From assembly GCF_048403405.1 (NCBI RefSeq), contig NZ_CP183129.1: a DNA stretch of 64,000 nucleotides. One strand, written 5' to 3'. A program made the position numbers and the translations under genes. The notes beneath the pieces were generated by a model, which was not told the DNA's origin, searched no databases, and worked only from the letters and a program-made list of their open reading frames with translations. Of this stretch, positions 9 to 31,974 are shown piece by piece (the first letter of the stretch is position 1; each line of letters starts with the position of its first letter). The DNA comes from Escherichia coli. Lineage in GTDB: Bacteria > Pseudomonadota > Gammaproteobacteria > Enterobacterales > Enterobacteriaceae.

Positions 9-833
9 TTATCGCATTATGCCCATGAAGCCATGTACGCCCATATACACACCAACTAAGCCAATCAACAGACTGGAAAAATAGGGGGCGCGTTTAGCGA
101 GAGTGTTAAATCCGCTCCAGCGTTTTGCGACCTGCTGAACGCTGATTGCTGCGCCAACGCCTACGGTGACAAGCGTTAACGCCAGGCCAATGCTGAAACT
201 GACGACCAGTGTTGCGCCCAGTGTCAGGGCTTTCAACTGAATGCATATCAACAGCACGGTAATTGCTGCCGGGCAGGGGATAAGGCCACCGGTTAAGCCA
301 AATAGCAAAATTTGCCAGTTGGTGACCTCTCTACCATCAAAGCGTCGTTTAATGTCATTGGCATGGGCTCGTGCATGGGCATCCTGATACTCGCCATGTT
401 CGTGATGGTGATGATGTCCATGGTCGTGGTGATCTTCGTGATCGTGGTGATGATGCTCATGATCATGCTCGTGCATATTCTCCAGCCAGTTTCGTTCGCC
501 GCGCCAGGTACGCCAGAACATCCAGAACGCGGTGCCAATAATGATCACTGCGGAAATCAACTGGAGCCACGGTTCTGCTGATTGAGCAGTAAAGCGCTTG
601 CTGATCACCATCCCGCCAAAGGCAATCAACCAGACCACTGCGGTATGCGAAATGGTTGCTGCCAGTCCGAGCATCACCGCCTGTTTAATGGTGCCTTTGA
701 TGGCGATGATAAACGCCGCCATCATCGTTTTTGAGTGCCCTGGTTCCAGGCCATGAAGCGCACCAAGTAAGATGGCGCTGGGGATGAAGAACCAGGCGTT
801 TCCTTGCTGAAGAAGAGTTGTAAATTCGGTCAT
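9..833 (-). CDS. rcnA: Ni/Co efflux permease RcnA, 274 aa, with a His-rich cytoplasmic loop
   Basis: ORF track 9..833 (-); sequence recognised as E. coli RcnA including the HEHDHEHHHHDHEDHHDHGHHHHHEH tract; divergent from rcnR. Confidence 0.9.
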   Translation of the reverse strand: MTEFTTLLQQGNAWFFIPSAILLGALHGLEPGHSKTMMAAFIIAIKGTIKQAVMLGLAATISHTAVVWLIAFGGMVISKRFTAQSAEPWLQLISAVIIIGTAFWMFWRTWRGERNWLENMHEHDHEHHHHDHEDHHDHGHHHHHEHGEYQDAHARAHANDIKRRFDGREVTNWQILLFGLTGGLIPCPAAITVLLICIQLKALTLGATLVVSFSIGLALTLVTVGVGAAISVQQVAKRWSGFNTLAKRAPYFSSLLIGLVGVYMGVHGFMGIMR

Positions 834-953: not shown

Positions 954-1226
954 ATGTCTCATACCATCCGTGATAAACAGAAACTGAAAGCGCGTGCCAG
1001 TAAGATTCAGGGCCAGGTCGTGGCGCTCAAGAAAATGCTCGACGAGCCGCACGAATGCGCTGCAGTTTTACAACAGATTGCTGCTATCCGTGGCGCGGTA
1101 AACGGTCTGATGCGGGAAGTGATTAAAGGTCATCTGACGGAACACATCGTTCACCAGGGGGATGAGCTAAAACGTGAAGAAGATCTGGATGTCGTTCTGA
1201 AGGTGCTGGATTCTTATATCAAATAA
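954..1226 (+). CDS. rcnR: Ni/Co-responsive transcriptional repressor RcnR, 90 aa
   Basis: ORF track 954..1226 (+); CsoR/RcnR-family sequence; divergent from rcnA. Confidence 0.9.
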
Positions 1227-1448: not shown

Positions 1449-2237
1449 ATGCAAGTCGACCTGCTGAGTTCCGCGCAATCTGCGCACGCGTTACATCTTT
1501 TTCACCAACATTCCCCTCTTGTGCACTGCATGACCAACGATGTGGTGCAAACCTTTACTGCCAATACCTTGCTGGCGCTCGGTGCATCCCCAGCGATGGT
1601 TATCGAAACCGAAGAGGCCAGTCAGTTTGCGGCTATCGCCAGTGCGTTGCTGATTAACGTTGGCACGCTGACGCAGCCACGCGCACAGGCGATGCGTGCC
1701 GCCATTGAACAGGCAAAACGCTCTCAAACACCCTGGACGCTTGATCCAGTAGCGGTGGGTGCACTCGATTATCGCCGCCGTTTTTGTCTGGAACTTCTGT
1801 CTCATAAGCCAACCGCCATACGTGGTAATGCTTCGGAAATCATGGCATTAGCTGGCGTTGCTAATGGTGGACGGGGAGTGGATACCACTGACGCCGCAGC
1901 TAATGCGATACCCGCTGCACAAACACTGGCACGGGAAACTGGCGCAATCGTCGTGGTCACTGGCGAGATGGATTATGTTACCGATGGACATCGTATCATT
2001 GGTATTCACGGTGGCGATCCGTTAATGACCAAAGTGGTAGGAACTGGCTGTGCATTATCGGCGGTTGTCGCTGCCTGTTGTGCGCTACCAGGCGATACGC
2101 TGGAAAATATCGCATCTGCCTGTCACTGGATGAAACAAGCCGGAGAACGCGCAGTCGCCAGTAGCGAGGGGCCAGGCAGTTTTGTTCCACATTTCCTTGA
2201 TGCGCTCTGGCAATTGACGCCGGAGGTGCAGGCATGA
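1449..2237 (+). CDS. thiM: Hydroxyethylthiazole kinase, 262 aa
   Basis: ORF track; recognised ThiM sequence; stop overlaps thiD start (ATGA). Confidence 0.9.
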
Positions 2238-17427: not shown

Positions 17428-17584
17428 GAATATTTTTTGGTAAGCGTCAAACATGCGCGTTCTGATTGTGCGTAGCCGGAACCTGTACGAGCACGATGCC
17501 GTTAAGTGAAAGGCATCGTGCTATGAAGGGGGATTCTATCGATGTGGTCAATGGAAGACGGTGACCAGGATACGGCTTATGCAT

Positions 17585-17611
17585 AAAAAATAAGCCCGTG
17601 TAAGGGAGATT
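17585..17611. other. Phage P2 attB core-like sequence (aaaaaataagcccgtgtaagggagatt) at the cyaR 3' end, unoccupied
   Basis: 27-mer read from sequence; matches the P2 attachment core as I recall it; no prophage genes flank it here. Confidence 0.5.
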
Positions 17612-30830: not shown

Positions 30831-30989
30831 TGGAGGAATTATGAAACACTGTCGGGAATCGTCTGAATGACGGGCACATTTGCGAGCACGCATCCAGTAA
30901 TAACACATGAAACTATTTTATCTGCAAGTTAGCGATAGACTGCTTGCATGGCGAAAGGAGGTAAGCCGCCGTTTTCAGCGGGACGCTGA

Positions 30990-31128
30990 AACGGGAAAGC
31001 CCCTCCCGAGGAAGGGGCCTTAAATAAGGAAAGGGTCATGATGAAGCTACTCATCATCGTGGTGCTCTTAGTGATTAGCTACCCAGCATACTAAGACTAC
31101 CAGGGCGGGGGAAACCCCGCTCTACCCT
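30990..31128 (-). ncRNA. Sib-family antisense sRNA (type I antitoxin), copy 1; ends approximate
   Basis: Minus-strand promoter-like TTGACA-17-TACTTT near 31135..31165 and hairpin gcccct/aggggc plus U-rich tail near 30995..31018; fully overlaps ibs copy 1. Confidence 0.5.
31038..31094 (+). CDS. Ibs-family type I toxin peptide, copy 1 (MMKLLIIVVLLVISYPAY)
   Basis: 18-codon ORF with SD aaggaaagggtc upstream; Ibs-like hydrophobic peptide. Confidence 0.75.
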   Translation: MMKLLIIVVLLVISYPAY

Positions 31129-31317
31129 CACTCCTGAAAGTATGCCTTCACGATAAGATTGTCAATCTGCAGGCTTTGCAGTCTGCGATCCTGCCAGCAA
31201 ATATTCTTTGCGAGACGTTACGCAATAATCACACTGGAAACTATTTTATCCGCAAGTCAGCGATAGACTGCATACAGGGCGAAAGGAGGTAAGCCGACGA
31301 TTTCAGCGGGACGCTGA

Positions 31318-31456
31318 AACGGGAAAGCCCCTCCCGAGGAAGGGGCCTTAAATAAGGAAAGGGTCATGATGAAGATACTCATCATCGTGGTGCTCTTAGT
31401 GATTAGCTACCCAGCATACTAAGACTACCAGGGCGGGGGAAACCCCGCTCTACCCT
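31318..31456 (-). ncRNA. Sib-family antisense sRNA, copy 2; ends approximate
   Basis: Same elements at equivalent positions in repeat unit 2. Confidence 0.5.
31366..31422 (+). CDS. Ibs-family type I toxin peptide, copy 2 (MMKILIIVVLLVISYPAY)
   Basis: Same position within repeat unit 2. Confidence 0.75.
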   Translation: MMKILIIVVLLVISYPAY

Positions 31457-31646
31457 CACTCCTGAAAGTATGCCTTCACGATAAGATTGTCAATCCGCAG
31501 GCTTTGCAGTCTGCGATCCTGCCAGCAAATATTCTTTGCGAGTCGTTACGCAATAATCACAGAGGAAACTATTTTGGTCACGCGTTAGCGATAGACTGCA
31601 TTCAGGGCGAAAGGAGGTAAGCCGACGATTTCAGCGGGACGCTGAA

Positions 31647-31790
31647 ACGGGAAACCCTCTCCCGGAGAAGAGGGCTTTTAATAAGGAAAGGGTTATGATG
31701 AAGCACGTCATCATACTGGAGATACTCTTAGTGATTAGCTTCCAGGCTTACTAAGAACACCAGGGGGAGGGAGAAACCTCTCCCTAACCC
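31647..31790 (-). ncRNA. Sib-family antisense sRNA, copy 3; ends approximate
   Basis: Equivalent position in unit 3; minus-strand TTGACA-17-TAATTT promoter-like element near 31800..31830. Confidence 0.45.
31695..31754 (+). CDS. Ibs-family type I toxin peptide, copy 3 (MMKHVIILEILLVISFQAY), IbsA-like but with an internal Glu
   Basis: 19-codon ORF in repeat unit 3; GAG codon read directly from sequence. Confidence 0.7.
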   Translation: MMKHVIILEILLVISFQAY

Positions 31791-31974
31791 TCACTCCTGA
31801 AATTATGTCACTCCGCCCTTAGTGTCAATCGACGGCTCTCCGTTCTTGCGAGGCGAATAGCAAAATTTTCTGCGCCGCCGGGCCTAATTCTGAAAGTTTC
31901 TTCGTTTGCTCTTATTTCATTATTGCAATCGGTATGATACCGGGCCTCAATAATTCTCTAAGAAAGGATTTCTT

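Follow-up and report, generated by a model that had tools for sequence, protein, structure and literature searches.

A His-rich loop in RcnA (YohM) of Escherichia coli was described by Rodrigue et al. 2005, as cited in PMC11445613 and PMC11247825. The loop is given as 67 aa with 17 histidines, and its cytoplasmic placement stems from a DeepTMHMM prediction for the homologue of cable bacteria (PMC11247825). Tandem repeats have been reported in the same gene of other species. In Salmonella, the VNTR STTR5 (unit CACGAC) lies in yohM (rcnA), where it sits "between two domains of YohM" (PMC5183578; PMC1781188). In Salmonella Typhimurium, STTR5 commonly comprises 8-14 perfect units, and up to 26, and it shifts length within 50 generations in the laboratory (PMC5183578). 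Moreover, the loss of an (HD)9 block from rcnA was observed during in-host passage of Salmonella (PMC6760104). In Klebsiella pneumoniae, MLVA locus 27 consists of a 6-bp unit (CATGGT) within rcnA (PMC3948817), and in-frame His/Asp insertions in rcnA have been reported in clinical isolates (PMC11445613).

We analysed the rcnA gene within a 64,000-nt stretch of E. coli DNA (the window; contig NZ_CP183129.1, RefSeq assembly GCF_048403405.1). The segment 396..473 is, almost certainly, the His-rich part of the central loop of RcnA, a length-variable codon repeat over which by-product ORFs run. The E. coli RcnA loop of the literature corresponds to it in gene, in position and in the kind of tract, with 17 histidines. 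STTR5 occupies the orthologous gene and loop, and the unit found in O157-type E. coli alleles, GACCAC (5-9 copies), is a rotation of CACGAC; however, STTR5 forms long perfect arrays, whereas the window allele contains no perfect run of more than two units and has the length common to ~87% of E. coli genomes. Locus 27 of K. pneumoniae is likewise an in-frame 6-bp VNTR in the His-rich region of rcnA, but with a different repeat unit and a wider range (0-19 units). The coordinates of the features discussed below are collected in Table 1.

Table 1. Features located in and around rcnA (window coordinates)
Feature	Position	Strand	Description
rcnA (yohM) CDS	9..833	minus	274 aa, NicO-family nickel/cobalt efflux protein; ORF and profile matches
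His/Asp/Glu tract HEHDHEHHHHDHEDHHDHGHHHHHEH, residues 121-146	396..473	minus	degenerate in-frame codon repeat; sole length-variable part of rcnA
Central hydrophilic loop, ~residues 108-175 (about 68 residues)	309..512	minus	predicted between third and fourth hydrophobic segments; holds the His tract
8-nt direct repeats TTCGTGAT (sense ATCACGAA)	399-406, 435-442		36 nt apart; read from the sequence
CVN007 reverse primer match (ACCAGTGTTGCGCCCAGTGTC)	205..225	plus	exact; primer from PMC8143711 Table 1
CVN007 forward primer match (ACCGTGGCTCCAGYTGATTTC)	553..573	minus	exact; primer from PMC8143711 Table 1
Shadow-like ORF, 81 aa, I/T/M-rich	293..538	minus	+1 frame of rcnA strand; tract read as ...IITTITKITTTMDIITIT...
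Shadow-like ORF, 89 aa, M/V/I/F-rich	312..581	plus	codon-aligned antisense frame; tract read as ...MFVMVMMSMVVVIFVIVVMMLMIMLV...
Third overlapping ORF, 56 aa	371..541	plus	antisense, another frame; no Pfam match; not mentioned in the initial annotation
TPP riboswitch RF00059	1318-1414	plus	71.8 bits (gathering score 54.3); upstream of thiM
thiM	1449..2237		3' of the TPP riboswitch

The rcnA gene and its His-rich loop

The assignment of the gene to rcnA in the initial annotation is borne out by Pfam, NCBIfam and RefSeq, which agree with one another. The deduced product matches the Pfam family NicO (PF03824; E 6.2e-70, 236 bits against a cut-off of 27.7) over residues 13-273, and the NCBIfam model PRK10019 for a nickel/cobalt efflux transporter (560 bits; cut-off 195). 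Of the 5,426 complete genomes of E. coli, 5,365 contain a match to the 825-nt gene, labelled rcnA by RefSeq in every case. The genetic context points the same way. A divergent rcnR gene lies at 954..1226(+), its product matching the RcnR equivalog of NCBIfam (197 bits), and rcnB lies just past the window start, adjoining rcnA in every RefSeq locus that was fetched with flanks of at least 300 nt. The full-length profile match, the rcnR/rcnB context and the central His-rich hydrophilic loop are those of an RcnA/NicO family member. Gene order in the remainder of the window follows that of the E. coli chromosome, with rcnR, thiMD, yegXWVUT, fbaB, the gat operon, yegS, yegR, yegQ, baeRS and mdtDCBA. 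Judged by its sequence, the gene at 9..833(-) is rcnA, and its predicted product is the E. coli Ni(II)/Co(II) efflux protein RcnA. The term "rcnA" in PMC12708500 stands for replication-coupled nucleosome assembly and is irrelevant to this gene.

The window rcnA allele is 100% identical to those of strains 7/2 and B19429. In strain 7/2 this identity extends over the 825 nt of rcnA, while the surrounding 31 kb (window 1-31535) is only ~98% identical; local recombination or the chance sharing of a common allele could account for this pattern. A counterpart of the TPP riboswitch is annotated in strain 7/2, which also carries, between yegQ and yegR, a ~33-kb P2-family prophage absent from the window; the two BLAST blocks meet at window ~17577-17611. 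Furthermore, window ~30879-31807 gave overlapping matches (83-93% identity) to a region of strain 7/2 with two Ibs-family type I toxin genes, a pattern suggestive of ibs toxin units in tandem repeat upstream of mdtA. The rcnA-rcnR intergenic region of the window contains two near-identical 15-nt inverted-repeat sites, at 871-885 (TACTCCCCCCCAGTA) and 891-905 (TACTACCCCCCAGTA). On the other strand both sites read TACT-G6-N-AGTA, which we take to be the published RcnR operator motif.

The low-complexity His-codon tract that the initial annotation had reported in rcnA is present, with HEHDHEHHHHDHEDHHDHGHHHHHEH encoded exactly at 396..473 on the minus strand; the broader span originally delimited, 390..476, adds Met120 and Gly147-Glu148. 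Its 26 codons are CAT (nine), CAC (eight), GAT (three), GAG (two), GAA (two), GAC (one) and GGA (one). Histidine accounts for 17 of the 26 residues of the tract, as against 6 of the 248 in the rest of RcnA (binomial P ~4e-22), and this excess is therefore not due to chance. At the nucleotide level the repeat is degenerate: Tandem Repeats Finder described a period-18 array at 396-452 (3.2 copies, 74% matches), with further descriptions of the tract at periods 9, 12 and 21, and a repeat search returned four imperfect 23-nt copies at a spacing of 18-24 nt. Perfect 6-nt runs in the window allele reach two units at most (CATCAC), and a perfect hexanucleotide array of the STTR5 type, with at least three units, is absent from this allele.

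In a Kyte-Doolittle profile of RcnA, the hydrophobic segments stop near residue 107 and restart near residue 176, and the predicted loop between them (~108-175) contains 8 K+R, 15 D+E and 19 H. This profile and the literature on the 17-His loop agree with the initial annotation in placing the tract in the His-rich loop of RcnA. The topology and flexibility attributed to the loop would follow from hydropathy and the literature rather than from a structure: a PDB sequence search with RcnA for a structure of the NicO family yielded weak matches only and no real homologue. Every one of these weak matches lies over or next to the His-rich loop, and many begin at chain residues 2-5, a position consistent with expression tags. 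RcnA sequence searches thus draw His-tagged or His-rich proteins as false matches through the low-complexity tract.

Length variation of the tract among E. coli genomes

The initial annotation had considered the tract a plausible site of length polymorphism, and an alignment of E. coli genomes revealed anything but an invariant length: 11 length classes were found among 17 alleles, namely that of the window and 16 fetched E. coli rcnA alleles. Among them, rcnA measures 789-870 nt and the loop 16-43 aa, the classes ranging from -36 to +45 nt relative to the window allele (non-zero differences of -36, -21, -15, +9, +15, +21, +24, +27, +33 and +45 nt). Every difference in tract length is a multiple of 3 and falls inside the tract; the 741 flanking nucleotides are free of indels in all 17 alleles, and the flanking protein sequence is nearly invariant. 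Among the 5,365 matches, rows sampled at even intervals gave in-frame lengths of 789, 804, 810, 825, 834, 849, 852, 858 and 870 nt. The +15 and +21 classes came from a second sample, for which the query was a 271-nt stretch with the tract at its centre. With this query, 671 of 5,363 complete genomes (12.5%) were less than 95% identical. All sampled rows from the bands below 95% carried an indel of at least 15 nt, and all sampled rows at 96.7% or above had the window length. Thus, about 12.5% of the 5,363 complete genomes carry indel alleles and about 87% share the length of the window allele.

Within allele families, the tract changes in 6-nt steps. Among the O157:H7-type alleles, the sole variable is the copy number (5, 6, 7 or 9) of a perfect (GACCAC) array, and another family varies only between (CACGAG)4 and (CACGAG)5. 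The O157-type allele with n=7 was matched by 64 genomes at 99% identity or above, by 213 at 95-99% and by 85 at 90-95%; alleles of this family that differ by one or two units would be expected to fall in the 95-99% band. The loop MHGHDYEHHHHDHEHHHDHGHHHHHEHG, carried by alleles L011 and L012, is presumably the K-12 type. The loop of the window is of equal length and departs from it at three residues, with E122 in place of G, H125 in place of Y and D134 in place of H. The shortest allele, L007 (-36 nt), equals the K-12-type allele L011 minus the stretch between two 11-nt ATCACGAACAT direct repeats, the counterparts of the 8-nt pair that the window carries at 399-406 and 435-442. As to the window tract itself, it is probably comparatively stable rather than hypervariable in this strain, since it has no perfect run of more than two units and its length is common to ~87% of the genomes.

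Larger changes of the gene were seen in two strains. In strain ZF31 the match was limited to rcnA positions 715-825, adjoining yehA and a hypothetical protein, which suggests that most of rcnA has been deleted. In strain 81EVA (L019 2501-2700) rcnA is cut by an IS3-family element whose junction lies inside the His tract, at ~window 434-438, and the 5' half of rcnA together with rcnR is replaced by other sequence.

The tract and its length variation are already known and used for strain typing, as locus CVN007. The generic E. coli MLVA scheme is reportedly that of Lindstedt et al. 2007. CVN007 is a locus of this scheme, and its primers are given in PMC8143711. Both primers matched the window once and exactly, on either side of the tract, and gave no match in 100 shuffles. 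The in-silico amplicon (205..573) measures 369 bp, so that (369-314)/18 = 3.06, corresponding to CVN007 allele 3. Among Swedish ESBL E. coli, allele 3 accounts for 83%, allele 2 for 13% and allele 4 for 4% (PMC5217547), frequencies that mirror the ~87% of complete genomes with the dominant length; in non-O157 STEC, Nei's diversity for CVN007 is 0.10 (PMC3519732). As would be expected of this locus, length varies between conserved flanks. The scheme, however, assumes an 18-bp unit, and the observed rcnA alleles are mostly not multiples of 18: of the ten non-zero differences, only that of -36 nt corresponds to whole 18-bp units. MLVA repeat numbers are therefore rounded descriptions of more complex alleles.

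Overlapping open reading frames

The two ORFs that the initial annotation had listed across the tract, 293..538(-) and 312..581(+), are both in the ORF list and do cross it. The description of the pair as opposite-strand ORFs holds for 312..581(+), but 293..538(-) shares the strand of rcnA and uses its +1 frame. Read in the antisense frame, the His codons CAT/CAC become ATG/GTG, the Asp codons GAT/GAC become ATC/GTC and the Glu codons GAA/GAG become TTC/CTC; the +1 frame yields ATC, ACC, ATG and the like across the tract. No His, Asp or Glu codon can give rise to a stop in either of these alternative frames, which therefore remain open across the tract. The antisense open run corresponds to rcnA codons 86-176; TCA85 and CTA177, at its two ends, are the closest codons giving an antisense stop. 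The initial annotation had also held that the tract produces these spurious ORFs. They do appear to be by-products, but of their 81 and 89 codons only 26 each come from the tract, so that ORFs of 55 and 63 aa are left without it, and 74 ORFs of at least 80 aa are nested inside larger ORFs in the window. The tract thus lengthens 293..538(-) and 312..581(+) rather than producing them alone.

Could one or both of these ORFs be genuine overlapping or antisense genes for small proteins? Neither frame is interrupted in any of the 17 alleles, and the antisense peptide, rich in Met and Val, is hydrophobic enough to resemble a membrane helix. The openness, however, is accounted for by codon content, and the length of the open runs grows and shrinks exactly with that of the tract; the alternative frames therefore behave as by-products. 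Neither ORF has a family match in Pfam or NCBIfam, and neither is annotated in any RefSeq (PGAP) record inspected. Substitution patterns in the flanks also argue against coding. Among the 17 alleles, 51 of 64 variable flank sites (80%) fall at codon position 3 of rcnA. In the +1 frame this wobble position is the second of the codon, and in the antisense frame it is the first, both being non-synonymous there. Therefore, the alternative frames are not under purifying selection. A promoter scan upstream of 312..581(+) found no promoter-like site, a weak negative that is not relied on here. Taking into account that 74 similar nested ORFs occur within the window, and that homologues, annotation and frame-constrained substitutions were all lacking for the pair, we regard their being real genes as very improbable. 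From sequence comparison, 293..538(-) and 312..581(+) look like ordinary shadow ORFs, not genes. Known shadow ORFs are likewise long codon-aligned antisense or +1 frames bounded only by rare stop-reading codons; those over rcnA differ in receiving 26 codons from a stop-proof tract and in their unusually low-complexity look.

Origin and significance of the length variation

Two further readings concern the length variation itself. Low-complexity repeats are error-prone in some assemblies, and two complete genomes (L020 and L021) carry an rcnA flagged as frameshifted by a single base (CC to CCC and TTTTT to TTTT); these may be real pseudogenes or assembly errors. The corresponding 1-nt length variants (826 and 824 nt) were considered as products of tract slippage and discarded, as each affects a homopolymer, at window 693 or 728, and neither of these belongs to the tract. 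That location also speaks against the length polymorphism being an assembly or sequencing artefact, as do three further observations: all length changes of the tract are in-frame multiples of 3, alleles recur in independent complete genomes (64 at 99% identity or above for the O157-type n=7 allele), and PCR fragment sizing in MLVA studies displays the same variation (PMC5217547, PMC3519732). The probability of an artefact is thus virtually negligible. A different proposal accepts the polymorphism as real and takes the tract for an adaptive tuning or contingency locus, in which loop length would not drift neutrally but be selected for the Ni/Co efflux or buffering capacity that particular niches require, for instance through the (HD)n expansion of O157:H7-type lineages. 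In its favour, lineage-specific allele families exist, repeat number varies within the O157-type lineage, Salmonella data suggest a bias to mid-range STTR5 lengths (PMC5183578), and cable bacteria possess a greatly expanded loop (PMC11247825). Against it, loops of 16 to 43 aa all occur in intact genes, as expected of a tolerant linker. Moreover, all tract variants are multiples of 3 and leave the frame intact, unlike the on/off switching by repeat slippage that marks classical contingency loci; the tract does not qualify as a phase-variable locus. We consider adaptive tuning unlikely.

The reading that we favour remains that of a His-rich loop encoded by a codon repeat that varies in length. 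Because the loop consists of His, Asp and Glu codons (CAY, GAY, GAR), its DNA is a degenerate in-frame repeat with 6-, 9- and 18-nt periodicities, and this stop-proof tract adds 26 open codons to shadow ORFs in the +1 and the codon-aligned antisense frames. Its short direct repeats would permit replication slippage, the likely mutational mechanism, as well as repeat-mediated deletion or duplication. The (GACCAC)n and (CACGAG)n steps and the -36 nt allele have the appearance of signatures of slippage and of repeat-mediated deletion, respectively. The loop would thereby change by whole codons, with the flanking transmembrane segments staying fixed, and would probably tolerate changes in length, as a flexible metal-binding segment may do. 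From one allele family to another, lengths differ in complex ways (+9, +15, -15, -21 and others), with accompanying substitutions and by amounts that are not multiples of 18 or 6. Some of the diversity reflects old, complex alleles rather than recent slippage, and these older alleles have possibly been spread by recombination.

The tract of rcnA holds little new biology; it is a real, ordinary and known feature. For annotation, the alternative-frame ORFs over it should be disregarded by annotators and in ORF tracks. For typing, genome sequences could provide the exact loop sequences in place of counts of an ill-fitting 18-bp unit. It is conceivable, though quite improbable, that loop length in E. 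coli is a selected quantitative trait, with lineage-specific (His-Asp)5-9 expansions, as in O157:H7-type strains, and contractions to a 16-residue loop tuning Ni/Co efflux, or the buffering of metal in the cytoplasm, to the niche; if so, typing by CVN007 would draw on a functional rather than a neutral marker.
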